A DNA stretch of 64,000 nucleotides from Nitrososphaerota archaeon (GCA_011605725.1 JAAOZP010000003.1:9032-73031), one strand, 5' to 3'; shown: positions 35,438 to 63,176, numbered from the stretch's first letter. The notes: generated from the sequence alone by a model not told the origin. Numbers and translations are program-made.

Positions 35438-35612
35438 TTGGGGAATGCAGTCTTTCGCCGACACTAGCCCGTATTCATCACTGCCACTATGCTTTCCCTC
35501 TCAGGTTTAAAGACCGATGAAGCTAACCCTACAATCATAGTGGGTAGGCGCGCTAAAGGTTGTTGTCAAGTGAAGAAGTGTTATCGAGGAAAAGCAGCGC
35601 GTTAGCGCGCGC

Positions 35613-35680
35613 GTTGAGACTGTAAAGCCTAGGGAGAAACTGTTAATAGTAATGAGTGAAATCATCGAGGTCATAACCTA
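35613..35680. repeat. Direct repeat copy 1: a 68-bp perfect repeat, with ~25 bp of additional flanking similarity.
   Basis: gttgagactgtaaagcctagggagaaactgttaatagtaatgagtgaaatcatcgaggtcataaccta is identical to the stretch at 37486..37553. Confidence 0.85.
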
Positions 35681-35896
35681 GAAGATTCTTCAAGCGTGCG
35701 AGGTTAGGGAGAACAGGGTTATCTGACCCTATGGGTTCGAGTTCGATGTTACCTGCTGCCTGCCGAAGGAAGCATGGGAGAGTGGAGGCTATGCGTGCTA
35801 GAGTTGAATAATCTGCTTCAAAGAGCGCGCTCTTTATGATTGAGAGCAAATCTCAGCATAGTCAATGAATATTTCCATCTTTAAAACATAGTTGGA

Positions 35897-37192
35897 TCAT
35901 GATTCGAGTAGCCATTTCCACAAGGGTAGGAACCTAATCCTCCTGCCATCATGCTTCTCCACTCCTTCATAGTCCCAAGTGATCACGGTTAGGTCGCTAC
36001 AGTCCAGCTCCTTAGAAGCCTTCACTAGCGCGCTTATTTCCCTCTCCTTCGTATCGAAATCCTCTATATTGTAGCATACTTGTATTAATTGCTTAATCTT
36101 TCCACCGCTCTTTATAATGAAGTCCACCTCCTTATTATTGGAGCTGAAATAGAACAAGTTTTCGTTTGGAGTGAAACCTTTCTTCAAGAGTTCTGAGAAA
36201 ACCAGGTTCTCCATAAGCCTGCTCGTGCTTTCAACTCCATTGACGATGAGCAGGCCATTATCCACCAAGTATATCTTTGGAATAGTCTGCTCCACTTCCT
36301 TATAGGACCTAGAATACTTCCTTAAAGTGCATAAAACTAACGAGTCTGAAAAATACTCAACATAGTTGTAAAGAGTGTTCTTACTAACCTTCATCCCCAA
36401 GGATTTAATATAGTTATAAAACTTATGGATTGAAAAATACGTGGACGACACTAAACTCTTAACCATTAATCTAAGGACTCTTATGTTCTTAACCTTGAAC
36501 CTCTCTATTATGTCCCTATAGATAGTAACCTCAAATATTTCCTTCAAGATCTTTTCCCTTTCATTTTCGAATAGTACTACTTCAGGATAGCTTCCCCTCA
36601 TGTATTTCTGAAGGAGATTCAGAAGCATAGCTTTCTTTAAAGAGGAAAGATATTTTTCCGCTTCGAAGCCCTTTGCTCTCAAGAACTCTTTGAAGTTAAA
36701 AGGATAAATGTAGTAGGGAAGAGTCCTTCCCCTTAGACTTGTCGCGACCTCCATGGATAGAAGCTTGGAGGAAGACCCGCTGACATACACTTGAATTCTC
36801 TCGCTATCTACAACGCTGCGCACAAACCTTTCCCAATAAGGGACGTTCTGAACCTCGTCTAGGAAAAGGTAAACCTTTTGCCTCTTATTTTCGGGGTAAA
36901 TCTCGTAAAAAATATTGAGCATGCTCCTTAAATCCTCTATGGTGCAGCCGATTAGCAAGTCGCTTTCAAGGTTAACGTAAAGTATTCTGCTTTTATCAAT
37001 ATTGTTACGCAGTAATTCCCCTATAACCTGAAACATGAAGAACGTTTTACCTGCTCTCCTCGGCCCAATTATAGATATGGCTCTTCTTATCGGAAGATCA
37101 GCTTCAATCCTAAGGTCTCTTTTCACAAGTTTAGGTAACTCGGATTCTTGGAAATCTTTTATCATTCTTATCCAGGTCTCTCGCGTTACCAT
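35897..37192 (-). CDS. AAA+ ATPase of the COG1373 / AAA_14 plus DUF4143 family, paralog of 26989..28269.
   Basis: Walker A IIGPRRAGKTFFMFQV. Walker B LFLDEVQ. Shares its C-terminal region with the paralog (…KQLIQV…ITW.Y…PLWKWL). Confidence 0.75.
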   Translation of the reverse strand: MVTRETWIRMIKDFQESELPKLVKRDLRIEADLPIRRAISIIGPRRAGKTFFMFQVIGELLRNNIDKSRILYVNLESDLLIGCTIEDLRSMLNIFYEIYPENKRQKVYLFLDEVQNVPYWERFVRSVVDSERIQVYVSGSSSKLLSMEVATSLRGRTLPYYIYPFNFKEFLRAKGFEAEKYLSSLKKAMLLNLLQKYMRGSYPEVVLFENEREKILKEIFEVTIYRDIIERFKVKNIRVLRLMVKSLVSSTYFSIHKFYNYIKSLGMKVSKNTLYNYVEYFSDSLVLCTLRKYSRSYKEVEQTIPKIYLVDNGLLIVNGVESTSRLMENLVFSELLKKGFTPNENLFYFSSNNKEVDFIIKSGGKIKQLIQVCYNIEDFDTKEREISALVKASKELDCSDLTVITWDYEGVEKHDGRRIRFLPLWKWLLES

Positions 37193-37485
37193 CGTATCAT
37201 GTATAGGGAAACTAATTTAAAAAGTTTCCCTCTTTAGAGAACCATCCCATCTATCTCGACGAATCATTCACATATGCCGTCTGAGTGCTTTATTAAATTA
37301 AGTCCTCTGTTTTATGCGTCTTAAGAATCCGTAATTGTTGTACTTCTAGCGCGCTAGTATCCTTCTGGGAGAATTTCCTTCACCCTATCTATGTTCCAGC
37401 CGTCTCTTTTCATCAACACAAAATCACAACCCCTTGTAGCGCGCTAAGAATCTTTAGCTCAGAGCAAGAAACATAAAAAGAAGTC

Positions 37486-37553
37486 GTTGAGACTGTAAAG
37501 CCTAGGGAGAAACTGTTAATAGTAATGAGTGAAATCATCGAGGTCATAACCTA
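37486..37553. repeat. Direct repeat copy 2, identical over 68 bp to 35613..35680.
   Basis: Same 68-mer. The downstream ~25 bp are similar with a 2-bp indel. Confidence 0.85.
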
Positions 37554-37671
37554 ACATTCTTCAAGCGCGCGAGGTTAGAATTATACTCTGCTCCGCGCTC
37601 GCTACAGGCTTTCTAGTAAATACTGCTGCATTAGGATTTCTAGCTATCATGTTCTGTTTCATATTCACCAC

Positions 37672-38814: not shown

Positions 38815-39158
38815 CTTCCCCTACCATTCTGAAGACCAATTCCCCTTATAAATCTATGGTTAAAAAGTAATAAAGATGTTGCTGGGGAACTTAGATAGAA
38901 TCCGGAAGAATGTTAGAGAAAACACGTTGAATAAACTCTTACCCAAGAATACCAAGAAATTTAGATTACTCGCTTTCTAGGTCGAGCAGGTCCCAGTCGG
39001 GCGCACGCTAAAATCTTCAATAAAACTAAGCGCTTTAGAGGAGCAAAAAGATTGAATAATCTACTTAAAAACTGTAAACAAACCTTATTCTATAAAACCT
39101 GCATCTCCATTAGACATATTATTAGCCATCCAAAATAGGTCCACGCGCGCTATCAAGT

Positions 39159-39166
39159 CTTATATA
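39159..39166 (+). promoter_or_regulatory. TATA-like box (TTATATAT) upstream of the methyltransferase gene, preceded by a GCGCGC element.
   Basis: ccacGCGCGCtatcaagtcTTATATATttgtgtc… lies ~23 bp upstream of the ATG at 39189. This fits the archaeal -26 TATA spacing for a leaderless mRNA. Confidence 0.4.
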
Positions 39167-39188
39167 TTTGTGTCATGAGAAAACTCGT

Positions 39189-40070
39189 ATGTTTCAAACC
39201 ATTCATAAGATGTTCCTAGGAGATTCTAGGAGCATGGATAATGTTGACGACGAGTCTGTGCATCTCATCCTAACCTCCCCGCCCTATTGGAATATTAAGA
39301 AGTATCCTGAGAACCCATGTCAGCTTGGAAACATTTCTGATTACCATCTGTTCCTGTCTGAGCTTAAGAGGGTTGTTGAAGAGTGCTTCAGGGTTCTTGT
39401 TAAAGGCGGGAGGCTGTGCATGGTTGTCGGCGACATCTGCGTGGCTAGGAAGCAGGGTCGCCACCGCGTCATACCCTTTCACTCCCACGTTACCCAGCTA
39501 TGCTTGGACGCTGGTCTAGACTACTTGTCTCCAATAATCCTCTACAAGATTGCTAACGTTACCACTGAGGCTAAGCGGGAAACATATGCTCTAGGAAGAT
39601 ACTTGGGCCCGAACTCGATAATAAAAAACGATATTGAGTACGTGCTCATCTTCAGGAAGCCCGGCGCCTATAGGAGGGTTAACAAGCGTCTCGCAGCTCT
39701 AAGCAGGCTTAGGAAAAACGAGTTTACAGAGTATTTCCGCCAAGTCTGGTGGGTTAACGGTTGCCGCGTAAGCAGCCACCCGGCTCCGTTTTCACTAGAG
39801 CTAGCCAAAAGGCTGGTCAGAATGTTCTCCTATGTTGGAGACACTGTTTTAGACCCGTTCCTAGGCTCCGGGACAACCAGTCTGGCAGCCATCTGTACGC
39901 TTAGAAACTCGATAGGGTATGAGGTTGAGCCCTCATACGTCAAGTCGGCTAGGGATAGGGTTAGAAGAATGCTGGCGAGGAACAATATTCCGCACGCCAT
40001 GGTTAATGAGGAGTATCCTGAGTCGGGGATAGTCTTCAAGGTTAATGGGGTTCCGCTCAGGCCAGGCTAA
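39189..40070 (+). CDS. Beta-class DNA amino-methyltransferase (N4-cytosine or N6-adenine).
   Basis: Motif IV LILTSPPYWN comes before motif I VLDPFLGSGTT, which is the beta-class order. The track starts at TTG 39168, but ATG 39189 fits the TATA spacing better. Confidence 0.8.
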   Translation: MFQTIHKMFLGDSRSMDNVDDESVHLILTSPPYWNIKKYPENPCQLGNISDYHLFLSELKRVVEECFRVLVKGGRLCMVVGDICVARKQGRHRVIPFHSHVTQLCLDAGLDYLSPIILYKIANVTTEAKRETYALGRYLGPNSIIKNDIEYVLIFRKPGAYRRVNKRLAALSRLRKNEFTEYFRQVWWVNGCRVSSHPAPFSLELAKRLVRMFSYVGDTVLDPFLGSGTTSLAAICTLRNSIGYEVEPSYVKSARDRVRRMLARNNIPHAMVNEEYPESGIVFKVNGVPLRPG

Positions 40071-40109
40071 TCCAGTTTTCAAATTTAATTCAACCTAATA
40101 TTTTTTAAT

Positions 40110-41657
40110 GTGAAAACGCTTAATACTGGTGTGAACGGTGAGGAGGATAAGGTTAAGTTATTGGAGAGCAGGCTGGGGGAGCTTGAGCTCGTCGGCTTAA
40201 CTGGAAGCACAACCAAGGTTACAGAGGCCCCGCTGATCCTCCTGGAGAACATGGAGACAAGGGTTAGGGAGGAGGACATAGTGCTCATAGTCAACCGAAG
40301 CTCCTCCGATTATATTCTTGCTGTTTGCAGGAGCGGCATGGGTATTAACGAGAACCTGAGGGTCGGGGGATACAGCCCGGGAATAGCCTACGTGCGCTCG
40401 AAAGGCCAGCCGCCGTCAACAGCCAAGGAGTCCTACCATTTCACACTATCCTTCATAGGATTGCTCACGAGCAGGGGTGTGAAGACTAACAACATAATTG
40501 TTGCACCAGGCTCGAAAGTATATCTTTTCAAGAAGGAGGCGTTGGAGATGAACCCGTTAACGTTCCTAGAACCTAAGGAGCATGTTGAAGGCGGGTACCT
40601 GGCGAATTCCGAGGGAAACTGGCTGATACCATTCGACAAGAAGTATATTCCTTACCATATTGGTGTCTTCGGAGCCACCGGCTCTGGGAAATCGATGCTT
40701 GCAAGGTATCTCTTAATCCCGCTTCTCACGCAGGCTGGCTACGGAGTGCTGGTTTTCGACTGGGAGGGCGTTGACTATTCACCGTTTTTCAAAAACAATA
40801 CCCTATCTATCTGCGATTTCAAAATGGATGTTAATATGGCGGTGGAGTTCCTCATGAGAAACACTGATCACTTTGGCTACGGAGACGAGAACAAACCCGT
40901 TCCCTCAGCAGTTGTAAAAGTAATGTCGAGAAAGCTGAACGACAAGACTTGGTGGGACGAGGTTCCAAAAACCCTGAACAGCGGTGAAGAGCTGCGTGAG
41001 AAACTGAGGGAGGATGCTTTAAGCGAGCTGCGTGAAAGAAGCGGCTGGGAGAGTTACGGCCCCTCTTGGGAGCTTAAACTCAACTATGGTCTCGACCGGG
41101 TTTCGAAGGAAAACTGGGAGCTGCTCTACAGGTCTAGCAAAGGAGTCTCCATCGAGGAGTTCAGGTTTCCAAGCCCAGGGGAGCTTATCGTAATAGATAT
41201 GAGCGAGGTGAGTGGAGAGAGGAAGCTGTCTTTCTTCTCAGAGCTCTGCAGCAGGCTGATATCAATGATGCAGGAGAGAGGCGTGAAGCTTAACCTGGCG
41301 GTGGTGATAGATGAGGCGCCGCAGTACTGTCCATCCGAGCCCAAGGGATTGCAGGGGAAGACGACGGAGCAGTTGAAAGACCTGTGCGCCCTAGGCAGGA
41401 AGCGAAACATGTGCGTAGTGCTCCTCTCCCAGGGAATGGCTGGTGAAATAGGGATTAACGCTGCCGTCAGGAGGAATCTTAACACGCTCTTCATAGGGCA
41501 GATTCATCCTTTGGATATTGAGGAGGCTGGGAAGAGGCTGATGCCCTACGGCGTTAGGCCTGAGGAACTGCTCTTCCTCGAGCCCGGGAAATTCTATCTC
41601 ACGGGCAAGATGAACCCTTCGCCAACACCCCTGCTGATATCGTTCAAAATAGAATAG
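40110..41657 (+). CDS. herA: HerA-like (DUF87/FtsK-HerA superfamily) hexameric ATPase/translocase.
   Basis: Walker A IGVFGATGSGKSM. Walker B LAVVIDEAPQY. Arginine-finger region RKRNMCVVLLSQGMAGEIGINAAVRRNLNTLFIGQ. N-terminal HAS-barrel-like region. The start lies 40 bp after the methyltransferase stop. Confidence 0.7.
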   Translation: MKTLNTGVNGEEDKVKLLESRLGELELVGLTGSTTKVTEAPLILLENMETRVREEDIVLIVNRSSSDYILAVCRSGMGINENLRVGGYSPGIAYVRSKGQPPSTAKESYHFTLSFIGLLTSRGVKTNNIIVAPGSKVYLFKKEALEMNPLTFLEPKEHVEGGYLANSEGNWLIPFDKKYIPYHIGVFGATGSGKSMLARYLLIPLLTQAGYGVLVFDWEGVDYSPFFKNNTLSICDFKMDVNMAVEFLMRNTDHFGYGDENKPVPSAVVKVMSRKLNDKTWWDEVPKTLNSGEELREKLREDALSELRERSGWESYGPSWELKLNYGLDRVSKENWELLYRSSKGVSIEEFRFPSPGELIVIDMSEVSGERKLSFFSELCSRLISMMQERGVKLNLAVVIDEAPQYCPSEPKGLQGKTTEQLKDLCALGRKRNMCVVLLSQGMAGEIGINAAVRRNLNTLFIGQIHPLDIEEAGKRLMPYGVRPEELLFLEPGKFYLTGKMNPSPTPLLISFKIE

Positions 41658-41667
41658 GTGTTTAGGA

Positions 41668-42858
41668 ATGTCTTCAGAGGAGAACCCGCTTCTCACTCTT
41701 CCAAGACCCATAGTGGACGCGCTTTTCTCAAGCGCTGAGAAAGAGGCTGGGAACGTGAAGGAAAGAATCCTAATGCTTGAGAAGATGGCTAGAAAGGTTT
41801 CAGAAGGCTTCAGGTTTAACAGGATTGCTGGAAGCAGAAAAGGCTGTATTGCTGTTGCAGACGGCTCCATGTCTGTCGCGCCCAGCAACCGTATAGGCTC
41901 GCTGTTCGCAATATACTCGGCTGGATACATGGTTTTCGACGACGGTAGGCTTATGGATGAGAACTATTACGCCGGATCCCTAAGCTGGCCCTACGGGGGA
42001 GCCAGAGATTTCAAGACGCTGCTCAAGCTCCTGATGGCTTACGCTGAGAGGAAAGCCGCGTTAGAAGCCTACTGGAAGCATAATCCTGACCTAATCCTGC
42101 TGGACGGCCCGTTCTTCTTCTTCAGGGGATACTGCAGGTATATTCATGCTGTCCAGGTTGAAACGCCTGAGCTTAAAACAGGCCTAGACCTCGTAAGGGA
42201 GGTTAGGGACAAGACCCTGACGCTGATGGAGACGGGTAGAGCAGTATGCGTAATAAGGCGGAGCGGCATCAGAGCTGTAGACGGCTGGCTGATCTACAAT
42301 CAGGGCGAGGAAGCCTGCCTGAGGATTAACGATAAGCATCTTCTCACAATGGTCATGCCGCCGATGACAACATGGTCGTACAGGGACCTATGCGAGGACC
42401 CGCTTCTATACGCTACCTTCTACCGGTTCTACAGGAGGTGGAGGCAAGCCGGAAGGAGGCCTGAAGAACTTGACAAGGAGAAAATCCTTTCACAGTGCCT
42501 GGAGGACTGGAGGAGAAAGTTCCTGAGCGATTTAGACATTGAGTTTGAAAAAGTGCCGAGGTTAGAGAGGCATTACGTAAGGTATACGGGTGCGGCGCCG
42601 CCTTTCGAGATAGAGACACTAGCAAACATGAAGCCGGAGGGCTTCGCCGAGTACTTCGTCGAATTCCACAATCCCGCTACCGGGCTCCCGTACCCGATAG
42701 ACATGGTTGACGAGGCTGTTACACTGCCCAGGGGCTCGACAACAGCCTTCACCGAGGAGGTTGAGGCAAGGCTCATCAAAGACCAGGACATAGAGAATAA
42801 GACGGCAATATCAGACTACTTCACGGTCCTAAACCCACAGAAGAAAGAATACATATAG
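41668..42858 (+). CDS. nurA: NurA-like nuclease (RNase H-like fold).
   Basis: NurA motif I CIAVADGSMSV (the DGS motif). A second aspartate motif, PDLILLDGPFFFF. Size 396 aa. Starts 11 bp after herA. Confidence 0.6.
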   Translation: MSSEENPLLTLPRPIVDALFSSAEKEAGNVKERILMLEKMARKVSEGFRFNRIAGSRKGCIAVADGSMSVAPSNRIGSLFAIYSAGYMVFDDGRLMDENYYAGSLSWPYGGARDFKTLLKLLMAYAERKAALEAYWKHNPDLILLDGPFFFFRGYCRYIHAVQVETPELKTGLDLVREVRDKTLTLMETGRAVCVIRRSGIRAVDGWLIYNQGEEACLRINDKHLLTMVMPPMTTWSYRDLCEDPLLYATFYRFYRRWRQAGRRPEELDKEKILSQCLEDWRRKFLSDLDIEFEKVPRLERHYVRYTGAAPPFEIETLANMKPEGFAEYFVEFHNPATGLPYPIDMVDEAVTLPRGSTTAFTEEVEARLIKDQDIENKTAISDYFTVLNPQKKEYI

Positions 42859-43012
42859 CGTGCCATTATGCGCTACCACTTCGAGAATCCAGCGCTACGT
42901 GTGAGCTGAAGATTTCTAACATGCGCTTTCAGAAAAAAAGTTAAATAGATTGCTTACTACATTTTCACCGGTTAAACTATTAAAGTGACAATTGAAAGAG
43001 GGGTGAGTTCGC

Positions 43013-43687
43013 ATGAGATATGCGGAACTAGTTAAGGGCATTATAAATTTTGAGAGTTCTTTCTGGTTCGGTGAATATGTATATTTTAAGGCTCTTGAAA
43101 ATCTAGAGAACGTTAGGGCTGACTTAAGTAAGTTAGAAACAAAGGAGCATGTAGAAAGAATAATTAAGATGTTTCTCATTCAATGGGGTAGAATGGGAAG
43201 AACTGTGGATAGGAGAGATTTAAATTGGGAACAACTTACTAAACAATTACGTAGCTCTAAAGAAGCTTTCCAAAAACTACAGGGTAAAAGTATACTAGAT
43301 ATTAATCTTGACGATGAGGAAGTAAGAGATGCTATTAAAAGAACTTATGAGGCAGCAAGCATTAAATACATTGGGGCAACTGCAATCTCAAAGATTTTAC
43401 ATCTGCTAAATCCTGAAATCTACGTAATGTGGGATGAAGATATTAGGATGAAATATAAGGTTGCAAAAAGTGTGAAAGGTTATCTAGATTTTCTAAAGCA
43501 AATGAAGGTGGAAGTAAAAGAGGCATTAGGAGAAGGGGTTAAAGAGAAAGGATGTAGCGAAAAGGAAATCGTGGAAGAAATTTGTAGAGAGCTTCCAAGT
43601 AAAAAGCTTGGCCAAGAATATAGTAGAAAAACTTTGGCTAAACTTATTGATGAATACAACTGGTGGTTGGTCCATTACGGATTTTGA
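43013..43687 (+). CDS. Hypothetical protein encoded in an AT-rich patch.
   Basis: 224-aa ORF. Markedly lower GC than its neighbours. No recognised motif. Confidence 0.4.
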   Translation: MRYAELVKGIINFESSFWFGEYVYFKALENLENVRADLSKLETKEHVERIIKMFLIQWGRMGRTVDRRDLNWEQLTKQLRSSKEAFQKLQGKSILDINLDDEEVRDAIKRTYEAASIKYIGATAISKILHLLNPEIYVMWDEDIRMKYKVAKSVKGYLDFLKQMKVEVKEALGEGVKEKGCSEKEIVEEICRELPSKKLGQEYSRKTLAKLIDEYNWWLVHYGF

Positions 43688-43794
43688 TAAATTATCGATT
43701 CATGTTAAGGAGACGGTGAAGAATGGAGTCTAAAAGCAAGTAACGATAACAGTGCTTTTAAAATAATTTTAAGATGCAGTCGTTTTCGTGTTTT

Positions 43795-44724
43795 CTAGGT
43801 TCCTACTGCTAATTTTTCTTGGCCTCCGCTAAGCCTCCGTATAATGTTCTCTAAGTCCTCGGGCTTGATGGCTTCAATCTTCTCCTTTGTTTCTTCAATG
43901 GCGGAAACCCAGCGTTGAGAACCACTAGTCTTCCTAACAGCTACTATCATATAATAGTAGAATCTATAGGGTGATTTTACCTTAATAGGTATCGTAACCT
44001 CTCTATGCTCTCTGATCTTCTCTAAGTAAAGCTCGAATAGAGCATCTTCATTCTCGCATGCTTTCCACTCATCTGTTCCAAAGAAACGTTGCAGCGTTTC
44101 TATTTCCGCAGAAGTCTTATTTTCTTTTAGAGCACTTCTAGAAACCCCGGTAGATTGATAGTTTATAATAAGATCCCCGGTAAGATTGAAGAGATGTTGC
44201 AGAGTTTCCCACTCTATTTCTAATCCCTCAGGATCTACAAAAGCAAGAAAATGAACGGAGCCAGCTTCTAAACGAGCTTTAGTCATGGCTTTAAATTCTG
44301 GGCCGTTGACATCTTCTTTCCTCACTTTTGCATTCGGAAGTAAATGTCTTAATGCTTCTGCATATTTTTCTTTCTTCTCAAACAGAATCAGCTCGTCGAA
44401 TTTCTTCCTTGGAACCCGGTCTGTGATGAGAGGCGAGCCAAACACGATGAGATTGTTCAAATCGCTTATTCTATCTAAGCCTGGCCCAGCGAAAAGGTCG
44501 ATATAATACGCCTTATCAAAATGGGCTTTAATTATGGCCGTATATATGTCGGCGTAATATGCTAGAATGGCGAGCTTTAAAATAGCCCAGCTTTTACATG
44601 AATAAGCCTCCTTAGTTTTTTGAAATAATTGACTGGCCTCCTGACTCTGACCCCTTAAGGTTTCTATTCTGCGAACCCACCATTCGGAAGGTGTAATTTT
44701 TCTTCTCCGACCAGACGGATTCAT
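43795..44724 (-). CDS. TcmP/RlmJ-like methyltransferase-fold protein (three-Cys-motif partner-like).
   Basis: YYIDLFAGPGLD resembles RlmJ motif I (YLDTHAGAGRY). HFLAFVDPEGLE resembles RlmJ motif IV (LILIDPPYE). Lies 7 bp downstream of a radical SAM gene on the same strand. Confidence 0.5.
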   Translation of the reverse strand: MNPSGRRRKITPSEWWVRRIETLRGQSQEASQLFQKTKEAYSCKSWAILKLAILAYYADIYTAIIKAHFDKAYYIDLFAGPGLDRISDLNNLIVFGSPLITDRVPRKKFDELILFEKKEKYAEALRHLLPNAKVRKEDVNGPEFKAMTKARLEAGSVHFLAFVDPEGLEIEWETLQHLFNLTGDLIINYQSTGVSRSALKENKTSAEIETLQRFFGTDEWKACENEDALFELYLEKIREHREVTIPIKVKSPYRFYYYMIVAVRKTSGSQRWVSAIEETKEKIEAIKPEDLENIIRRLSGGQEKLAVGT

Positions 44725-44730
44725 TTGGAT

Positions 44731-45840
44731 TCACTTAGAGTAGCAATTACAAGTGCCTCGCCTATATGGGATGCCTAGTTTTTCAAGCATCGATACCGTC
44801 TCCTTACAAATACTTACTTTATCATCACCGTAGCCAAAAGCAGAGAGCTTATCCAGCATATACTCATATATCCTTCTCCTTAGTTCAGACGGTAATTTCT
44901 TTCCCCAACCAGTATCTTCTTTAAAGAACTTAGCCCAGCCCATATCTACCCCTGCTTTTTTAGCGTAGTATATTGTTTTCTTTAACCCCCTTGGCGTCCC
45001 AAGTATTATCTTAGCAGGTTCCACCTCAGACATGATTCTGTATAAAATATCTTCATAATGCGTTTCCCAGTCTTCTATAGGGAATATTGGGTCGATCCTT
45101 ATCCTCACCTCATACCCTGTTTCGTAAACCATTTTCGCAGCCTGTATCCTTTGTTCCGGCGGAGCTGCTTTTTTCTCCCAGATTTTTGCAACCTCTACGG
45201 CGTTAATACTCCAAGCGCATACAACCTGTTTCTTAACATGATCAGGCTTATTTAGCAAAAATTTAATACTGTTTGCCCCCGCTTTACTTAGCAGAACGAT
45301 CCTGTGCTTATGCTGCTCTCCAAACTTGTCAACTATTTCACTCATTAAGGGAGGGTTCATCAGGGAATCAGATAATTCGCCGCTGTTGAATAAAGCAGGC
45401 TTGCCACCGTTAAAATGAGGATCGTTAAATGCCTCGTCCAACGCATTGAATACGTAATGTAGTTTCACGTAGCTGGGTTTCATGTTCCCTTTCTTTGTTC
45501 CTCTCAAATAGCAATAAGAGCAATCGAAAGGACAGCCGAAAGCCCATCTCAACTCCCAGAAGGGGCCGCATGCTATGTCTGGAGGAGTTTTCGCGAATAA
45601 TTTCACTATGCCTTGACCGTATTCGGTTCGAAACGGCTTACGAACAGGCTCTTTCACTACGGCTTCAGGATGAGTGATCGACGCAATAATCTTCGGGGGG
45701 AAGAAATCAGGAATCCTCCTGCTCGACTTAGCGATTATTTCCGCCTCTTTCTTCCTTATTGTTCGCCAAGCCTTTAAAGCTGCTTCTCTATGTTTCTCCT
45801 TCTCTGTAAGCATCTTCCCCCTTCCTTTACTGTCTGCCAC
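44731..45840 (-). CDS. Radical SAM protein of the COG1533 (SplB-like 'DNA repair photolyase') type.
   Basis: GCPFDCSYCYL is CxxxCxxC followed by Tyr, as in COG1533 (GC-x-h-x-C-x-YCY). Length 369 aa. Confidence 0.6.
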   Translation of the reverse strand: MADSKGRGKMLTEKEKHREAALKAWRTIRKKEAEIIAKSSRRIPDFFPPKIIASITHPEAVVKEPVRKPFRTEYGQGIVKLFAKTPPDIACGPFWELRWAFGCPFDCSYCYLRGTKKGNMKPSYVKLHYVFNALDEAFNDPHFNGGKPALFNSGELSDSLMNPPLMSEIVDKFGEQHKHRIVLLSKAGANSIKFLLNKPDHVKKQVVCAWSINAVEVAKIWEKKAAPPEQRIQAAKMVYETGYEVRIRIDPIFPIEDWETHYEDILYRIMSEVEPAKIILGTPRGLKKTIYYAKKAGVDMGWAKFFKEDTGWGKKLPSELRRRIYEYMLDKLSAFGYGDDKVSICKETVSMLEKLGIPYRRGTCNCYSK

Positions 45841-45925
45841 TGTCCTTATAAGAACCTACACGGGAAGTTTTTAATCTTTGATTTTTCATTGGAACTTTTA
45901 AATAGCATGAGTTGGTGACTTATGT

Positions 45926-46915
45926 GTGGCTGAACTAGTTGAAAAGAGGGAATCGCCAGAAAAATCCTTATCCATCGGGATATACGTGGGTTTCAAGGCT
46001 GTTAAGACAGGCAACTTATGTTATGATACCCGGGTTTTCGCTCCTCCTGAAGTAAGGGTGGATAGCTATAGAATATCGTATCCGCTCATTAAACCGTCGA
46101 AGCTGACATCAAAAAGCCGTGGAGGCGTCGGTAAGGAGCTGTCGAACGGCTGGGCTTTGAACTTCGCAGTAGGCTGCACCCATGGATGCATCTTCTGTTA
46201 CGTCGACTCGATTCATAAGAGATTTGGAAGACACAGGTATGGGGCGGAGGTGGATGAGAAATGGGGGAACTATTTTCTGATTCCGAATAATATTGAGGAG
46301 GCGGTTGAAAAAACTCCTTGGCACAGGTGGAGGAACCGAGAGGTTCTTTTAAGCTCCACGCATGACCCCTATCTTCCTCAATTAGCGCCTGTTACGAGAA
46401 GAATTCTGGAAAGAGCACTGCCTGCTGGAGTGAAATTCTGCATTCAAACAAGGTCTCCGCTAGTAATGAAGGACTTCGACTTGTTAGCGAAATATGCGAA
46501 AAGCATAAGACTACAGGTGTCGATAGCTACGATGAACGAGGATTTCTCCAGACTGATTGAGCCCAGAGTATCTCCTCCGATGGCTAGGCTAAGCGTGATA
46601 AGAAATGCTAAGGAAGTTGGATTAGAAACCGGAGTCATTTTAGCGCCGATATTCCCACCGACAAGAATGAGGCCAAATGTAGGAGAGGACCTGGATGAAA
46701 TCATGAGGCAACTCGCCTTGATAAAACCAGACCACATATACGGCGAATCCCTGCATATAAGAGGAGGAAACATAAGGCTCATAAAACAAATCCTTGGAGA
46801 AGATTTCAACGATTTAAAGCCATTCGAATCTGAAATAAGGCGCTTGTTCAAATCAAAACTAAAGGAGTACGGTTTGAAGGGAACATGGTGGCTAGAACAC
46901 AGATATTTCAAATAG
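45926..46915 (+). CDS. Second radical SAM protein of the COG1533 (SplB-like) type, transcribed divergently from the first.
   Basis: LNFAVGCTHGCIFCYV is CxxxCxxC-Y. GTG start in the track. Length 329 aa. Confidence 0.6.
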   Translation: MAELVEKRESPEKSLSIGIYVGFKAVKTGNLCYDTRVFAPPEVRVDSYRISYPLIKPSKLTSKSRGGVGKELSNGWALNFAVGCTHGCIFCYVDSIHKRFGRHRYGAEVDEKWGNYFLIPNNIEEAVEKTPWHRWRNREVLLSSTHDPYLPQLAPVTRRILERALPAGVKFCIQTRSPLVMKDFDLLAKYAKSIRLQVSIATMNEDFSRLIEPRVSPPMARLSVIRNAKEVGLETGVILAPIFPPTRMRPNVGEDLDEIMRQLALIKPDHIYGESLHIRGGNIRLIKQILGEDFNDLKPFESEIRRLFKSKLKEYGLKGTWWLEHRYFK

Positions 46916-47111
46916 TTAACAGCTAGATCTCCTTTGTTTCTGGATTTTTCCTCAAATTCAAAAAGTACAATAATGATAAATTAACTTAACCGGGAAATGA
47001 GTTCTTCTCTAGGTGTAGCGTGTGCTCTGAGGATGGTTATTGCATGCAACTCATTATTGTGCAGAGATATTAACGAATTCTGACACTAATTCCTCTATAA
47101 CATTCGGCGCG

Positions 47112-47564
47112 CTAGTGTAGTCCTAGCTTACTTTCAAAGCTCCTAAATTCCTTCTTTTTCTCATAAAGAGCGTTAATCTCTTCCAAAGTTATTATTTTAA
47201 GCTCATCAATTATTTCTTGAATCACTCCAGAAGCAATGTTATAAGCAACACTAGTTTGATCTCTTGTTGTTTCTAAAATTGGTTTTGCATTCCACATATC
47301 CCTGGCATGCTTAAGTTTTGTTAAAGCTTCTTCAAGGTTCCCGCGAATATGCACTTCAAAGACAATGTAAGGATCTGCTCTTTGAAGCCTTTTCCATGCA
47401 ACGTCAATCTTGTAGCCATCAAGCTCTATTTCTTTTATGCTAATCTTTTCTTGAAGTAACCCTATCTGGTGAATTAAGTCTTTAACTGTTTCATGATCCA
47501 GTTCCGTTTTATATGGTATCTTTTTATTCCTTGCTTCATAATTCTCTTCAATTCTCTTGAACAT
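47112..47564 (-). CDS. Hypothetical protein in an AT-rich patch, possibly a small PD-(D/E)xK-like fold.
   Basis: 150 aa. DGYKIDVAWKR…IVFEVHIRG loosely resembles a D…E-x-K arrangement. Weak. Confidence 0.35.
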   Translation of the reverse strand: MFKRIEENYEARNKKIPYKTELDHETVKDLIHQIGLLQEKISIKEIELDGYKIDVAWKRLQRADPYIVFEVHIRGNLEEALTKLKHARDMWNAKPILETTRDQTSVAYNIASGVIQEIIDELKIITLEEINALYEKKKEFRSFESKLGLH

Positions 47565-47636
47565 TTCAGCGCGCGCGCTACTCCGTTGCTTTAAATAAAT
47601 GGCTACTTAAAATATTTAAATGTCGGCTAAAGATAT

Positions 47637-49373
47637 ATGAGTATTATGAGCATCCAAGATCAATTGGGTGAACCCGAGAGTAAGTCTTTTAACATCAGGA
47701 AAATTCTGAACCTTATTAATGAACATGAGTGGAGCCTTTATTTACCTTCTTTTCAAAGATCTTTTCTTTGGGATGAAGAAGATATTAAAAAGTTTCTTGA
47801 ATCAATGCTAAACGGGTATCCTGCTGGATCTATTCTTTTATGGCATCCTAGCAACAAAGGTATTGATCCATTTGCCAGAAAGTTTATAGATACTCGTCCA
47901 GAGCCTGATCACTCTGAAGTTTATTATATTCTGGACGGTCAACAAAGATTAACGGCACTCATGCTTCTCGCAAATGGCTGGAAGCTGGAAAGAGGCAGAA
48001 AAACAATTTCAAGATCTCCGATATCCTACAATCCATCTAAGCAAGGAGGAGAACTTATTAAAGGAATGAAAAGAGGAATCGATCTCTCTAGAGGGATTAA
48101 AGACCGATTAGGTGATGTTAAGGAAAGTCTCAGGCTAAAAAGGGAACTAGGGAGTAATTATAATGATTTCATACGCGCGATAGATAAAATTCTTAATTAC
48201 GAAATGCCTATTTATGTTGTTAAAACTTTTAACGAAACACCAAATATTCTTGGGAAAATGGCAAATATCTTTATAATGGTTAATAGAGCTGGACAGAGAA
48301 TTACCAACGTAGAATTACTCTTATCTTATGCTGCTGGAGTTTTTGATCAAGAAATCGTTAATAATCTAAGAAATTATTATGATGAGATTCAAGAAAAATA
48401 TGGTGAAGAAATCAGTATACAACCTTTCCTAAGATTTGCATTTTCTACTCCTCTAGTTGGGCTTAAGCAACAGGACATAGAAAATGTAGAAAGATTCAAG
48501 GCTTCTGTGAATAAAATAAAAGGGCAATTAACTCTTGATCGTAAAAAGATGTTGAATGAGAAGATTCAAAATGCATCTAAGTCGTTTGGCATAGCCTTAG
48601 ACCTCGTTTTAGAGATTTTCGGGAAGGCAGCCATCGAGCTCTTACCATCGCACATATCGTTAATTCCCATAGCTTGCTATCTTCATATAAATGACATAAG
48701 TAGCGTAAAGGAGCTTAATGAAAATGAGAAAGCATTGATTAAAAAATGGCTTTTGTTGGTGAATTTTAATGGATATTATTCGACAAGACCCTCTGTTAAG
48801 CTTCAGAAAGATATTGAGACTTTAGATCAATCTGGAAGATTTCCATTTCGAGAGTTTCTTGAAAACATTAAAGGAAATAAGCCCTCGGCAATCCGGATAT
48901 CCAAGGATAGCATTGTGGAAGGCTGTAACAAAGACATTCTAAGGAAGCCGAATCTCTCGTATCTTTTCCTACTTTATGTAGCACTAGTAGATAATGAGGC
49001 AAACGATTTGACTGGAAGATTAATAAGGAATCTTAATTTTGAAGAACTTGCTAGGCATCATATATTTCCAAGAGATAAACTCAAAAAAGAATTCAATATT
49101 CCGGAGGAGATATCTGAAGAAGATTATCCTATAAAGGGCATAAATGGGCTCGGAAATATCACTTTAGTACATACAGATGCAAATAGCGAAATATCTGACG
49201 AAGAACCGAAAGAGTATTTTAATAGGTATCGGCGCGAAGACCTTACTAAGCATTTTATTCCCATTAATGACGATAAGCTATGGGATCTTAAAAAGTTTGA
49301 TGATTTTGTTGAAAAAAGAATAGAGAAGATTTATGACTTCCTTAAAGAACGATATCAGGACATAATTGAATAA
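47637..49373 (+). CDS. GmrSD-family type IV (modification-dependent) restriction endonuclease, DUF262 plus DUF1524.
   Basis: DUF262 signature LPSFQRSFLWDEEDIKKF…GSILLW…YILDGQQRLTAL. C-terminal His-Me/HNH-like DUF1524 HHIFPRDKL…GNITLV. Confidence 0.75.
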   Translation: MSIMSIQDQLGEPESKSFNIRKILNLINEHEWSLYLPSFQRSFLWDEEDIKKFLESMLNGYPAGSILLWHPSNKGIDPFARKFIDTRPEPDHSEVYYILDGQQRLTALMLLANGWKLERGRKTISRSPISYNPSKQGGELIKGMKRGIDLSRGIKDRLGDVKESLRLKRELGSNYNDFIRAIDKILNYEMPIYVVKTFNETPNILGKMANIFIMVNRAGQRITNVELLLSYAAGVFDQEIVNNLRNYYDEIQEKYGEEISIQPFLRFAFSTPLVGLKQQDIENVERFKASVNKIKGQLTLDRKKMLNEKIQNASKSFGIALDLVLEIFGKAAIELLPSHISLIPIACYLHINDISSVKELNENEKALIKKWLLLVNFNGYYSTRPSVKLQKDIETLDQSGRFPFREFLENIKGNKPSAIRISKDSIVEGCNKDILRKPNLSYLFLLYVALVDNEANDLTGRLIRNLNFEELARHHIFPRDKLKKEFNIPEEISEEDYPIKGINGLGNITLVHTDANSEISDEEPKEYFNRYRREDLTKHFIPINDDKLWDLKKFDDFVEKRIEKIYDFLKERYQDIIE

Positions 49374-49425
49374 TAGATTATTACATACTGGCTAAGGCTA
49401 TATGGCTCTTTCGCGCGCCAACGTA

Positions 49426-49905
49426 CTATTCGCGATGTTCAGTAGGGGGTGTGGCTCCACCAATAACGCATAGGGCGTTGATCACCCTTAACCCACTGGT
49501 TTCCTTGCTGACTAACCCTAGAAACTTGCTCGTCCAGAACCATACTTCCTCAGGCGTGCACGACATTAGGTATCTCATGGTTTTCTCCGCCGTTTCATCC
49601 GTCTCGGCGTAAGCTAATGTTGCTGTCGCTAAACCTATTCTATACGCGTCCACCATGGCCTCCATGCTCTTCGGTGGAAAGTCTATGCGGAAACCTGTAC
49701 GTGTCCTTCTGCTCCCATATTTAGCCACCAGCTCTTTTATATGAGGGCGAATCATTATTACGCGGCTGCCCTTCAATGAACCGATGATGAAGCTTGGACG
49801 CCTGAGCTCGTGTGGTAGGGCCAGCTCCCTTGATTTCGGCCAAGCCTCTACAGACACCTTTTCATTTTTTCCCTTCGAATATTTCAACACGTATTTGTAG
49901 GTCAA
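49426..49905 (-). CDS. Small accessory protein co-transcribed with the DUF499 ATPase. Function unknown.
   Basis: 159-aa ORF starting 3 bp after the DUF499 stop on the same strand. No motif recognised. Confidence 0.4.
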   Translation of the reverse strand: MTYKYVLKYSKGKNEKVSVEAWPKSRELALPHELRRPSFIIGSLKGSRVIMIRPHIKELVAKYGSRRTRTGFRIDFPPKSMEAMVDAYRIGLATATLAYAETDETAEKTMRYLMSCTPEEVWFWTSKFLGLVSKETSGLRVINALCVIGGATPPTEHRE

Positions 49906-49907
49906 GC

Positions 49908-52856
49908 CTATGCACCTACATTTGCCTCGAGGCCTGCCACTATATCCTTACCAAGGCTTCTAAGCACCCCTGCAGCATCCTCTGGCTTAACCGGCTCACC
50001 CCATTTAAGCTCAAGCCGCACCTGTAGCGAATCTATTCCCTTAAGCCTCCAGAGGAGATCCAGCATGCTCTTACCCTCCTCTTTCTGCAAATCCTCCTTA
50101 TTAATTTCGAAAGAGATCGTGTAACTAGGAGACCTAGGCCTAGTAATCGACCCCGATAACCTTATGTTGCAATTTCTCTCCGGGCCTAGGCGGGTGAGAA
50201 GGTTTTTAATCTCAAGAAGCTGTCCAGCATCATTAGAGGAAATCTTTAAAATCACACTATTAACTTTAGTAAAACGGTCCCGAATAGCTCTCTTCTCTAT
50301 GTCGTTCGCCAAAGTTTCAACAGAGGATTCTGCAAGCACTATTAAGGTTGGACGCACCTTTTCCTCGGTGGGTTCAATTCCCCTCTTTTCCCCAGTATCT
50401 TTAGACACCTTTTCTTTTCCTCGGAGAAGCTTGTCGGCTTCTTCTGGCGTTAGTAACTCGGTGCGCTCATCCATTAAAATAGACTTCGGAGGATTATCCT
50501 TAGTATATATCATGTCTCCACACTTCAGAACCCATACCCCGTTTTCAACACCTCTTCTAACAGTTTCCAGAAACTTATCCTTAGACGACGAAATTATCAT
50601 ACCGGGTTTCCTGTAGAATTGCTCAAACAGCATCCTTATGCTTACGCTTTCTGCCCCCGCTGGCCAAACATTGGAGAACACGTATACAGGGTCAAGAGGC
50701 TCGTCCTTTACCCTGCCAAGCACGTTAACCAGTATATGCTTAAGCATATCGTAGCCACTGGCACCGGAAGCATAGCCGCTTCCATCTCTTACAGGTATTA
50801 CTTTAACTCCCTCCGCATCATAATATACGAAGTTAGAAAAGGCTCCTCTGATGTAGTCGTGAAGATTCTTTTCCTGTCTTGCCAAATACTCTTCAACATC
50901 GTTTTTTCTATCCTCACTTATACCATACTTCTTTAGGTCTCCCTTCACCATCCTCGCCGCCACTACCTTCCTAGCCACTTGCTTCATGGGTTCAATCCTG
51001 TCTTGAGCAGCAACCAGCAGAAACGTGGAGTTGGTGAACATCCTTGCATGTTGACCATGATCATCCCTATGTTCTAGAAACCTTCTAACTCGCTCTGGAA
51101 CAGTTCTGTCTGATATTACGTATTCATTGGGGTTAAGTATTGCGACTTGAATTACGGGCTCGTCGTCAAAGACTTTGCTTGGAGATGATGGGAAGAGCTC
51201 TACATCTATCCAGTCGGGCGATGAAGGAGTTCGTTTGAAAAGCTCATTCCGCAGCTTCTCCTTGATAACCTCTAGAGTTTCGCTCTCAGTTATGTCCCTC
51301 GACAGAAGGTCGATAACCCTTATTGGCGTCGGCTCTCTAACGAAGACAAATCTCTCGCCTTGCCTGTCGACAAAATGGAAGTTTTCTGAAAGATAATCCA
51401 GCACGATGTCACGTACCCTCATAAAGTGTTCCCTCCTGGCCGGCGTGACTAGTAGCGAAACCAGAAGCTCCGACCTAATGCCTTTATCCCCCTCCTTTCC
51501 AGCAGTTAAGCTATAAAGGTAAATCGTATTACAAGCTCTCCTAACGAGCGGTACTCCCCAGTTTTCCTTAGCCTGCTCATCCAGTTTTTCAGCAACAGCA
51601 GTACCGTCACCCTTCCAAACATCGGCTTCCACAGCATTTCTGAGCTTCTGCTCTCCGATATGCGTGGATAATTCGGCAAGCACATCTCGGTCAGCTAGGT
51701 CCACATGGAAAGGATGGATTAAGGTAGCGTCTTCCTCTTTTTCCGACCACATCTTGCGAACAACCTTAACGAGGAGCCGTAAAGCCCCCCTTGTTCTCTG
51801 AAACCTGTCGAGGGTAGCAACCCTCTCGTACAGGACTCTTATTAGATGAGGGTGAAAAGGATAATAATCCCTTATCATATCTCTGTAAGACTTGCTCTTA
51901 AACTCGTCTGGAACCGTTAGACTCTGGTAGAGCTCGTGATAAGCATCAGCCACATCCTCCGCCACCTTACTGTTAATCTTCTTAAACAGGCGTCTCTTCA
52001 AAATGTGGACGGCATCCTCCTCTTCTATCGGGACTAAGACAAGTTCTTTTCTCGCTACATGGGCCCTCGTCTCAGCCATCGCATTCCTAACAGCATCTGA
52101 AACCGCTTGCCTAGCCTTCTCAGCCTCAGACCTGTAAACGTCCTCAGCAATCGCCATCACTAGGACAGCGTCATCCTTCTCGGACACGGCTAGCACAAGC
52201 CTCTGAATCCACATTATAGTCTTATCAAGCATATCCTTCTCGAGGGCTACGAGCTTCAAGTAGGACGGCAACTCGTCGAGAAGAATCAGGACAGGTCCTC
52301 CCTCAAGAACCTTCTTAATGTCGTCGATACCGGGGACCTTTGCTTCCCGGTCAATACCAGCATAGTCATCATATTTGCCCAACTGCCAGAAGAGGTCGCC
52401 CCATATCGTTCTGATTCTGGTGCCGTCCCTAGTTATGCCATCACTCTTATAGTCCTCACCACTGATAGTCACAACCTTCACGTTCCGAGGAAACCTTAGG
52501 TTCCCCAAGAATTCCGAAACCTCGCTTCTGCCACTGTATTTGGCTGCATAATAGAGAGTGGCAAGAGTATGAGTCTTACCGCCGCCGAAGCCAACGTCGA
52601 GGACGATAACCGGGTTTACACCCTTCTTAGTGCCCGACAGCCTCCCGGCTACACTCTCCAATATCAGCCTCATGTTGCTAGTTAAGTGCGTCGCGGATAG
52701 AAATGAAACAGGGTTATCGTAAGGTGGCTTAGCAGTTCCTGAGACAATCGTGGAGAGCCTGAGAGCCAGGTCGGCATCTGTTAACGAGCCTGATAAAACC
52801 TCTTCCCTGGGAATACAAGCCTCCTCATCCCAGACCCGGGGAACATGTTCCGACAT
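49908..52856 (-). CDS. DUF499-family P-loop ATPase (BrxC/PglY-like).
   Basis: P-loop VIVLDVGFGGGKTHTLATLYY near residue 90 of a 982-aa protein. Its size and the N-terminal position of the P-loop fit DUF499. Confidence 0.6.
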   Translation of the reverse strand: MSEHVPRVWDEEACIPREEVLSGSLTDADLALRLSTIVSGTAKPPYDNPVSFLSATHLTSNMRLILESVAGRLSGTKKGVNPVIVLDVGFGGGKTHTLATLYYAAKYSGRSEVSEFLGNLRFPRNVKVVTISGEDYKSDGITRDGTRIRTIWGDLFWQLGKYDDYAGIDREAKVPGIDDIKKVLEGGPVLILLDELPSYLKLVALEKDMLDKTIMWIQRLVLAVSEKDDAVLVMAIAEDVYRSEAEKARQAVSDAVRNAMAETRAHVARKELVLVPIEEEDAVHILKRRLFKKINSKVAEDVADAYHELYQSLTVPDEFKSKSYRDMIRDYYPFHPHLIRVLYERVATLDRFQRTRGALRLLVKVVRKMWSEKEEDATLIHPFHVDLADRDVLAELSTHIGEQKLRNAVEADVWKGDGTAVAEKLDEQAKENWGVPLVRRACNTIYLYSLTAGKEGDKGIRSELLVSLLVTPARREHFMRVRDIVLDYLSENFHFVDRQGERFVFVREPTPIRVIDLLSRDITESETLEVIKEKLRNELFKRTPSSPDWIDVELFPSSPSKVFDDEPVIQVAILNPNEYVISDRTVPERVRRFLEHRDDHGQHARMFTNSTFLLVAAQDRIEPMKQVARKVVAARMVKGDLKKYGISEDRKNDVEEYLARQEKNLHDYIRGAFSNFVYYDAEGVKVIPVRDGSGYASGASGYDMLKHILVNVLGRVKDEPLDPVYVFSNVWPAGAESVSIRMLFEQFYRKPGMIISSSKDKFLETVRRGVENGVWVLKCGDMIYTKDNPPKSILMDERTELLTPEEADKLLRGKEKVSKDTGEKRGIEPTEEKVRPTLIVLAESSVETLANDIEKRAIRDRFTKVNSVILKISSNDAGQLLEIKNLLTRLGPERNCNIRLSGSITRPRSPSYTISFEINKEDLQKEEGKSMLDLLWRLKGIDSLQVRLELKWGEPVKPEDAAGVLRSLGKDIVAGLEANVGA

Positions 52857-52907
52857 ACGATAATAAGAACCCAGGCAAGCTATTTAAATAGTTAGCCTCA
52901 GTACATT
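52857..52907. promoter_or_regulatory. Bidirectional promoter region with a palindromic TATA-like element (TATTTAAATA, 52881..52890).
   Basis: A 51-bp divergent intergenic region lies between the DUF499 ATPase gene (minus strand) and the DUF1156 methyltransferase gene (plus strand). The palindromic A/T box sits ~24 bp and ~17 bp from the two start codons. Confidence 0.35.
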
Positions 52908-55718: not shown

Positions 55719-55752
55719 GGCATGGAACATAGATGTATAAGCTTGATTAGCA

Positions 55753-56277
55753 TTAGGAATGGATGTCGGAAATTTCCACGGCTTCTATTCTAGACTCTCC
55801 CAGGATGCCCTGTCTCCAAGAGGCTAGGTATTGCTCCAGCTTCTCAAGCCTTACAAGGATCTTCTCAGCCTGCTCCATCTCCCTGCGGCCGTTTCCCTCT
55901 AAGAGCCCTACAGCCTTGGATCCGTGTCTCAAGATGCCTCTGAGCAGCCTGTCATGGTCAACTGATTCACGTTGCCTCTCCACCAGGTGCATGTTTTCTT
56001 GAACGAATTTTCTGAGCGGGGCGTTCATGCTCGTAAGCCTTTTTTCAAGCGCCATCCTTACTTGATTTGTTGAAGGCCTTCTTTCTAAATCATGGTCTAG
56101 TGAGGCGAAATATACGCCAGCCTTATAGATGTGCCTAGCGATAAGCTCATGAGCGCCTTCAACCATGTTTCTCCTGAAGGATTCAAGTCTTCTTTCCTGC
56201 TCGGCGTCAATAATCCTTCCCCTGCTTCTGGCTGAGACCAGTGCTTGCTCAATGCTCTTCCTACAGCTGCACGTCAT
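55753..56277 (-). CDS. Small accessory protein co-transcribed with the PLD-SNF2 helicase. Function unknown.
   Basis: 174-aa ORF whose start overlaps the helicase stop by 4 nt (ATGA), suggesting translational coupling. Confidence 0.4.
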   Translation of the reverse strand: MTCSCRKSIEQALVSARSRGRIIDAEQERRLESFRRNMVEGAHELIARHIYKAGVYFASLDHDLERRPSTNQVRMALEKRLTSMNAPLRKFVQENMHLVERQRESVDHDRLLRGILRHGSKAVGLLEGNGRREMEQAEKILVRLEKLEQYLASWRQGILGESRIEAVEISDIHS

Positions 56278-62836: not shown

Positions 62837-63176
62837 TTATGAAGCGTTGAAATAGGTCTTCGCTTAAATCAACAAAAAAGGAGAGCTTCAAAACACGATT
62901 CTAGAATCGGGCTACGAGTTACGAGCCTCAGAAAACTATTCCTAAGGAGGAAGCTTAGCGACTAAGGTTCTCAGCTGCAGCAACCATGTAGTGCGCGCTA
63001 GTATAGTTGTTGTGTGAAGAATAACTCGTGGAATGCCTTTAGCGCACGTGAAGTTTTTAAACGGGTTTTCTAAGACTGCTGCATTCTTTTGCATGCTTAC
63101 TTTCACTCAACCCTCTCCCTCAAGCGTTTACTTTCCTAAGATTCCTGCATGGTTGGAAAACCTTTATCTTAAGCCT

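Follow-up and report, generated by a model that had tools for sequence, protein, structure and literature searches.

A methyltransferase-HerA-NurA gene triplet in an archaeal defence island, a possible methylation-linked restriction cassette

A 64,000-nucleotide stretch of DNA from a Nitrososphaerota archaeon (GCA_011605725.1, JAAOZP010000003.1:9032-73031), referred to here as the window, carries at 39.1-42.9 kb three consecutive open reading frames (ORFs) that encode, in this order, a DNA methyltransferase (MTase), a HerA-family ATPase and a NurA-family nuclease. By analogy with the TdpABC system of bacteria, the triplet is quite possibly a horizontally moving, methylation-linked HerA-NurA restriction cassette, in effect a methyl analogue of TdpABC. 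At the least, its HerA-NurA pair is a defence-island paralogue of the archaeal enzymes. An initial annotation, made from the sequence alone, had named the three families, placed all three genes on one strand within a dense defence island beside toxin-antitoxin (TA) modules, and remarked on the missing mre11-rad50. Profile searches and predicted structures bear out the three families, all three genes lie on the plus strand, and their surroundings do form a defence island; a scan of the larger ORFs in the 64-kb window turned up no Metallophos (Mre11) and no Rad50-type protein.

The three proteins of the triplet

The first gene (39189..40070, plus strand) encodes a beta-class DNA methyltransferase of 293 residues. 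It was recognised by Pfam PF01555 (N6_N4_Mtase) with E = 7e-36 and 124.7 bits against a cut-off of 26.7, over residues 31-261 of a 300-residue ORF, and by the PADLOC model MTase_II (9e-64). In beta-class enzymes, motif IV, (D/S/N)PP(Y/F), lies N-terminal to motif I, FxGxG. This order is found here, with SPPY (motif IV) at residue 37 and DPFLGSGT (motif I) at residue 229 in the numbering of the 300-residue ORF; the initial annotation had picked out the same pair of motifs, the second written as DPFLGSGTT. Motif IV of the SPPY form is typical of N4-cytosine enzymes, and on this ground the protein is probably an N4-methylcytosine (m4C) methyltransferase. The ORF list gives a TTG start (39168-40070, 300 residues). 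The ATG at 39189 is probably the true start, because the TTG falls within a TATA-like box (ttatatattt, 39160..39169, plus strand) that lies 20-29 nt 5' of the ATG. As a putative promoter, this box would yield a leaderless or near-leaderless MTase mRNA.

The second gene (40110..41657, plus strand) encodes a HerA-family hexameric translocase ATPase of 515 residues, which matches PF01935 (DUF87, the HerA central domain) with E = 2e-14 and 54.7 bits (cut-off 23.2). Its Walker A motif, GATGSGKS (residues 188-195), and Walker B motif, VVIDEA (residues 398-403), are invariant across 28 homologues. The AlphaFold model has a predicted local distance difference test score (pLDDT) of 88, and its top Foldseek matches in the PDB were 9X1M_A, from the T. 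kodakarensis HerA-NurA complex, and 4D2I, the HerA of S. solfataricus (E ~1e-22, template-modelling (TM) scores 0.58-0.67). The predicted fold is that of solved HerA proteins, comprising an N-terminal β-barrel, a RecA-like core and a helical bundle. The top PADLOC match, mad8 of MADS (5e-15), covers the ATPase core only.

The third gene (41668..42858, plus strand) encodes a protein of 396 residues, in which the initial annotation had seen a NurA-like nuclease on the strength of a DGS motif. By sequence it passed PF09376 marginally (23.5 bits against a cut-off of 21) and over residues 119-351 only; no NCBIfam or PADLOC model matched it, and neither a single NurA query nor a 22-sequence profile matched the solved NurA structures when run against PDB sequences. 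The family was settled because the predicted structure matched where sequence searches did not. The AlphaFold model (pLDDT 90, predicted TM score 0.86) superposes best with S. solfataricus NurA (2YGK; E = 2.9e-11, TM 0.70), followed by the NurA proteins of T. kodakarensis and P. furiosus. Residues D65 (of the DGS motif), E127, D146, D345 and D348 are invariant in 22 homologues, and we infer that they are equivalent, residue by residue, to the published active site. As modelled, the protein is a genuine, though divergent, NurA with an RNase-H-like fold.

The three genes are closely spaced, with 39 nt between the MTase gene and herA and 10 nt between herA and nurA. A GGTG Shine-Dalgarno-like element (41657..41660, plus strand) shares sequence with the stop codon of herA and lies 8 nt upstream of the ATG of nurA, which suggests that the two genes are translationally coupled; their counterparts in relatives overlap or are almost contiguous. 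The AT-rich 39-nt spacer between the MTase gene and herA (40071..40109, plus strand) contains another TATA-like sequence, caaatttaat (40080-40089), at 21-30 nt upstream of the GTG start of herA, and is a possible internal promoter of herA-nurA. The initial annotation had set the whole triplet behind a single TATA-like box; the box at 39160-39169 is present, but a single promoter cannot be asserted because the spacer carries this other stretch.

Related genomes carry a second HerA-NurA pair

The NurA family of the window is small and limited to uncultured TACK archaea, namely Brockarchaeota, Bathyarchaeia, Nezhaarchaeales, metagenome-assembled genomes (MAGs) labelled Nitrososphaerota, and Thermoprotei. 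It counted 38 proteins by a word-indexed search and 139 by an exhaustive profile search of 1.84 billion representatives. Scans of genomes and metagenome contigs gave 122 loci (L014-L135; loci are cited by such labels throughout). A concatenated tree of HerA and NurA defined a clade A with 100% bootstrap, whose NurA proteins are at least 49% identical to that of the window. The remaining, more distant clades are grouped as B, with NurA 29-38% and HerA 38-44% identical to the window proteins.

In Brockarchaeota-like MAGs, clade B shows conserved synteny: HerA-NurA is followed by a DHH/DHHA1 (RecJ-like) phosphoesterase, with no Mre11-Rad50 (L030, L035-L039, L041, L042, L044 and L046, at ~8.5-12.2 kb within each locus). 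This HerA-NurA-DHH arrangement is presumably the core pair of these MAGs. In Nitrososphaeria, a short Rad50-like SMC_N gene precedes the clade-B herA at L013, L027 and L028. Mre11 and Rad50 are not next to any clade-A pair.

The initial annotation had reasoned that, were the window pair the only herA-nurA of its genome and part of a syntenic core, ordinary resection machinery would explain it. This is not what we found, because three related MAGs that carry a clade-A pair also hold a syntenic clade-B pair: Brockarchaeota GD2_1 (L015 and L032), CAZTSG01 (L014 and L038) and JAVZMD01 (L018 and L039). The CAZTSG01 triplet at L014 shares 91% DNA identity with that of the window. Of the two marks of a canonical end-resection operon, linked Mre11/Rad50 and a core, syntenic, single-copy pair, the window pair shows neither, and it is not the repair machine, at least in the window's lineage.

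The triplet is also accessory and strain-variable. The 266-kb contig L010, 98-99% identical to the window, lacks the TA modules, the MTase gene and the first four-fifths of herA and keeps nurA. L077 lacks the first 605 bp of nurA and keeps the MTase gene, herA and a downstream ORF, orf224; L056 lacks the 5' end of herA. The broader proposition that clade A is accessory everywhere was dropped, as several MTase-less members lie in housekeeping contexts, beside Hel308-MCM-GINS (L011/L022), glutamine synthetase (L023) or a ribosome-biogenesis gene (L141).

The methyltransferase recurs upstream of clade-A herA

A neighbourhood survey, as the initial annotation had called for, found the MTase-HerA-NurA unit in at least six lineages with unrelated flanks. 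In six intact lineages, an MTase of the same clade lies directly upstream of a clade-A herA and on the same strand, namely the window group (window, L014/L057, L077), L015, L142, L138, L004-6/L064 and L016/L059; a seventh, L065, keeps a decayed MTase gene at this place. The gaps between the two genes across the six are 40, 52, 60, 19 and 93 bp and a 4-nt overlap. This MTase clade, labelled U+, to which the window enzyme belongs, occurs only upstream of clade-A herA. Identities of the MTase, HerA and NurA drop in parallel, from 79/80/86% to 63/52/58%, so that the three genes diverge in step, and the unrelated flanks of the MTase-linked copies point to horizontal movement. Viral contigs and plasmids yielded no relatives.

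The association is local. Homologues of the MTase number six within 1 kb of 13 clade-A pairs (26 kb of sequence), whereas the 348 kb of flanking sequence at distances above 3 kb from any pair contains none. Solitary MTases with SPPY or SPPF motifs also adjoin HerA-NurA independently in two other clades. At L109/L111, the MTase gene is downstream of HerA-NurA on the same strand, at a gap of 30-73 bp, and in Bathyarchaeia (L045/L048/L049/L050, and also L047) a solitary SPPF MTase gene is inserted convergently between nurA and adk, with the syntenic locus L040 lacking it.

A classical type II restriction-modification (R-M) system would place a cognate endonuclease beside the MTase; no candidate for one was found at the window triplet or at the other loci of the U+ MTase clade. 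Small proteins with a PD-(D/E)XK-like motif do lie beside the sister MTase P0171 and beside the MTases of L058 and L063, which gives these three MTases the look of ordinary members of type II R-M systems. No homologue of this small partner (as in L136, L058 and L063) occurs in the window or at the other loci with an upstream MTase. We considered the L058 and L063 enzymes as 'replacement' MTases of the cassette, which would have spoken for selection of an MTase beside HerA-NurA. This reading was rejected, since both fall on a different branch of the MTase tree and have their own candidate PD-(D/E)XK nuclease; they are for these reasons taken as separate R-M cassettes, with L058 also accompanied by an integrase.

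Comparison with known systems

A precedent for coupling DNA modification to a HerA-NurA pair exists in TdpABC, reported in extremophilic bacteria, where TdpC places phosphorothioates in DNA, and DNA without them is restricted by the HerA-like TdpA and the NurA-like TdpB (An et al., Nat Chem Biol 2025, as cited in PMC12914056). The resemblance lies in the three-gene make-up of a DNA-modifying enzyme, a HerA-like ATPase and a NurA-like nuclease, and in the occurrence in thermophiles. It extends to the predicted structures, with the window NurA model matching TdpB (8WFD_G, E = 3.6e-7) and the window HerA model matching TdpA (structures 8WET and 8WFD). The two differ in their modification, phosphorothioate made by TdpC in one and a PF01555 methyltransferase in the other, and in their hosts, bacteria there and TACK archaea here. 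Phosphorothioate reportedly blocks translocation by TdpAB; no comparable means of sensing a methyl group is evident in the window proteins.

With the canonical archaeal HerA-NurA of S. solfataricus, P. furiosus and T. kodakarensis, encoded in a herA-mre11-rad50-nurA operon, the window pair shares its folds (2YGK, 4D2I, 9X1M), the catalytic Asp/Glu residues, the Walker motifs, and a herA adjacent to, and probably translationally coupled with, nurA. It differs from them in sequence (11-16% identity) and in being accessory, free of Mre11/Rad50, joined to an MTase and set in a defence island. A 2026 structural study described processive degradation of both strands by archaeal HerA-NurA and suggested an antiviral rather than an end-resection role (PMC12977600); this source also mentions nurA-csm6-herA clusters at CRISPR loci of Pyrobaculum/Thermoproteus. 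Such clusters resemble our family in placing an extra HerA-NurA in archaeal defence loci, as at L007/L075, which lie inside a CRISPR-Cas and prokaryotic Argonaute (pAgo) island, whereas the window pair has no cas neighbours and has a methyltransferase.

The bacterial systems Sir2-HerA and DUF4297-HerA, also encoded in defence islands, likewise join a HerA hexamer to an effector, which is a nuclease or an NADase, and the HerA fold matches 9C1M, 8XAU-8XAW and 8WOD. Unlike the triplet, they have no modification enzyme and work by assembly-triggered activation or abortive infection; the effector in the window is NurA. Type I and type III R-M, BREX, DISARM, MADS and Hma/MANTIS resemble the triplet in their genetic linkage of an MTase with an ATPase motor and a nuclease, but the triplet has no superfamily 2 (SF2) helicase, phospholipase D (PLD) nuclease, PglZ or specificity subunit. 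To our knowledge, none of them uses a HerA motor (FtsK/HerA superfamily) with NurA.

A possible mechanism

We infer a functional dependence between methylation and HerA-NurA activity. In the mechanism that we envisage, the MTase would methylate host DNA at its short recognition sequence. Incoming DNA that lacks the mark would be attacked by HerA-NurA, which would either be loaded at unmodified sites by the MTase or gain access through an end that is free or nicked; the hexamer of HerA would then pump the duplex into the NurA dimer, where both strands would be destroyed. Methylated host DNA would either not be engaged or stall the motor. It is possible, and we say so with more reserve than for the cassette as such, that this would constitute a new class of ATP-dependent R-M, in which an m4C MTase provides both the self mark and the sequence specificity, and in which a HerA hexamer and NurA dimer, processive on unmethylated DNA, take the place of the endonuclease.

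The role of archaeal HerA-NurA is debated, and an accessory paralogue that sits in defence islands and is repeatedly joined to an MTase would offer a directly testable case for the antiviral idea. If the cassette reading is true, it would extend the TdpABC principle from phosphorothioate to base methylation and to archaea, and would provide the first experimentally tractable evidence of archaeal HerA-NurA paralogues as immune effectors. A compact system of three genes would, moreover, enter the catalogues of defence finders, which miss the triplet because PADLOC has no model for NurA.

Evidence against the cassette and alternative explanations

The initial annotation had proposed a restriction-type module in which the MTase marks self DNA. 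What stands of this proposal are the protein families, the defence island, the recurrence of the unit and the TdpAB precedent; self-protection by the MTase is not established, and about half of the clade has no adjacent MTase. Several observations weigh against a methylation-linked cassette. Eight of the roughly 17 clade-A lineages that are left after dereplication carry no MTase within several kb (L001, L007/L075, L011, L022, L023, L073, L141 and, for its upstream side only, L144), and MTase-bearing and MTase-less lineages are interleaved in the tree. At L065, the MTase gene is multiply frameshifted beside a full-length herA-nurA with intact Walker and DGS motifs, an arrangement that classical R-M logic would not allow. 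No extra methylation-reading domain is apparent in clade-A HerA or NurA, whose architecture is the same as that of the presumed housekeeping clade B, and both window proteins are structurally nearer to canonical archaeal HerA and NurA than to TdpA and TdpB. No MTase-NurA fusion occurs among the 139 family representatives drawn from the 1.84 billion searched; of those examined, the nearest bacterial homologue of the MTase is encoded by a gene that stands alone; PADLOC has no NurA model; and literature searches returned no paper describing an MTase-HerA-NurA triplet.

The L065 pseudogene indicates that HerA-NurA is not lethal without a neighbouring MTase. More generally, lineages with no MTase or a dead one survive, so the nuclease cannot, under all conditions, kill a cell whose own DNA is unmethylated. 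Either HerA-NurA needs DNA ends or loading by the MTase, or else the MTase is an add-on.

The main rival explanation is a fuller form of the add-on view, with two independent modules moving as neighbours. Clade-A HerA-NurA would work by itself as an accessory nuclease machine, for example in destroying linear foreign DNA as RecBCD does or in helping CRISPR or other defences; the MTase, either an orphan or what remains of a type II R-M system that has decayed, would have become linked to it genetically although HerA-NurA function does not require it. The many clade-A pairs without an MTase fit this, as does the dead MTase beside intact herA-nurA at L065. The closest bacterial relatives of the MTase are solitary and lie in housekeeping contexts, its sister enzyme belongs to an R-M-like pair, and the L058 and L063 MTases form R-M cassettes of their own. 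An antiviral role for plain HerA-NurA, together with the nurA-csm6-herA CRISPR clusters, is moreover already in print (PMC12977600). We nevertheless consider mere co-travel somewhat unlikely. The MTase-herA junction, from an overlap to 93 bp, has been kept across deep divergence and between unrelated flanks; no restriction enzyme accompanies the linked MTase clade; two other clades took up solitary MTases in separate events; and the density of MTases is zero away from the pairs. Should the cassette reading be refuted, the triplet would become a clear case of orphan methyltransferases hitch-hiking with defence genes.

It is improbable that the window pair is a housekeeping or back-up repair paralogue, acting in end resection or replication-fork processing with an incidental MTase neighbour. 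Related genomes already possess the syntenic clade-B HerA-NurA with its RecJ-like DHH/DHHA1 gene, and the copy in the window is surrounded by defence genes, has been lost in part from near-identical strains and has no Mre11/Rad50 nearby. The unrelated flanks of MTase-linked copies, indicative of horizontal movement, also sit poorly with such a role, for which the canonical HerA and NurA folds, the catalytic motifs and the placement of some clade-A pairs among replication, repair and housekeeping genes can be cited.

Very improbable is an accessory role in another defence system, in which the MTase would have no share and HerA-NurA would make or process the DNA fragments used in CRISPR adaptation or in loading pAgo with guides: a MTase-less clade-A pair does lie between Cas6/Csa1-Cas4/Cas1/Cas2 and a three-gene pAgo (Piwi) operon in Nezhaarchaeales MAGs (L007-L009, L075), and the PADLOC 'type III coevolved' HerA model matches the window HerA at 5e-10, but no cas or pAgo gene adjoins the window triplet or the other MTase-linked triplets, and the CRISPR-linked lineage is the one without an MTase.

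GC-repeat junctions around the cassette

The left edge of the cassette carries a GCGCGC motif (39145..39150, no strand assigned), and homology to the 91%-identical relatives L014 and L057 begins at 39144. The motif is abundant in the window, often as TAGCGCGCTA, with 36 matches against 7.2 expected, a 5-fold excess that none of 100 shuffles reached. Its 27 separate sites, 22 of them intergenic, span 18857-39150, 47107-49418 and 62181-63208; they fall at points where homology between strains breaks off, one of these being the triplet's left edge at 39145. At L015, a GCGCGC site lies 20 bp after nurA. (GC)n filler is present at all three independent partial-deletion junctions (L010 ~9757-9776, L077 3432-3443 and L056 101-106), and the window has no filler at those positions. 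The GCGCGC/TAGCGCGCTA tracts could be a cassette-junction or deletion-scar motif, and may mark how cassettes are exchanged or deleted in the island.

Immediately downstream of nurA, an AT-rich (36% GC) segment of 0.93 kb (42858-43790) contains orf224 (43013-43687, 224 residues), which has no match in Pfam, NCBIfam or PADLOC. L077 shares the segment with the window, and the near-identical L010 and L056 lack it.

The surrounding defence island

Besides a ParE protein and a PIN fragment, the island contains several systems downstream of the triplet. At 43795-46915, on the minus strand, TcmP (TIGR04474, 89 bits; PADLOC PDC-M41A) and an SPL-like radical S-adenosylmethionine (SAM) gene form what may be a module for DNA modification or defence. 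Beside them, in the same interval, lies a second, divergent radical SAM gene that resembles PA0069 or 'mobile pair B'. Further along is a GmrSD-type (DUF262/DUF1524) type IV restriction enzyme (47637-49373), with HEC-05 as its top PADLOC match.

A BREX-related type 2 system, Hma by PADLOC and MANTIS-like, occupies 49426-59600, 7 kb downstream of the triplet. It comprises a small unassigned ORF at the place expected for MtsB (49426-49905, minus strand), a DUF499 AAA+ ATPase (49908-52856, minus strand), a DUF1156 adenine methyltransferase (52908-55718, plus strand) and a PLD+SNF2 helicase-nuclease (56274-59600, minus strand). Relatives of the pair elsewhere also lie in defence contexts, with Mrr and GmrSD at L142, Cas4 and TnpB at L005, and CRISPR-Cas and pAgo at L007.

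On the other side of the triplet, two large ORFs, at 14968-17328 (minus strand, 786 residues) and 2297-3979 (plus strand, 560 residues), match no Pfam family. The left end of the window holds an AAA_15/AAA_21 ABC-type ATPase at 958-1974, likened by PADLOC to AriA, mad3 or GajA, for which the ORF at 340-909 is a possible partner. Two AAA_14/DUF4143 ATPase genes are present, at 26989-28269 and 35897-37192 (the latter on the minus strand). A direct repeat of ~96 nt, with 69 nt identical (35612-35707 and 37485-37578), flanks the second of these genes, and each copy of the repeat adjoins a (GC)n tract.

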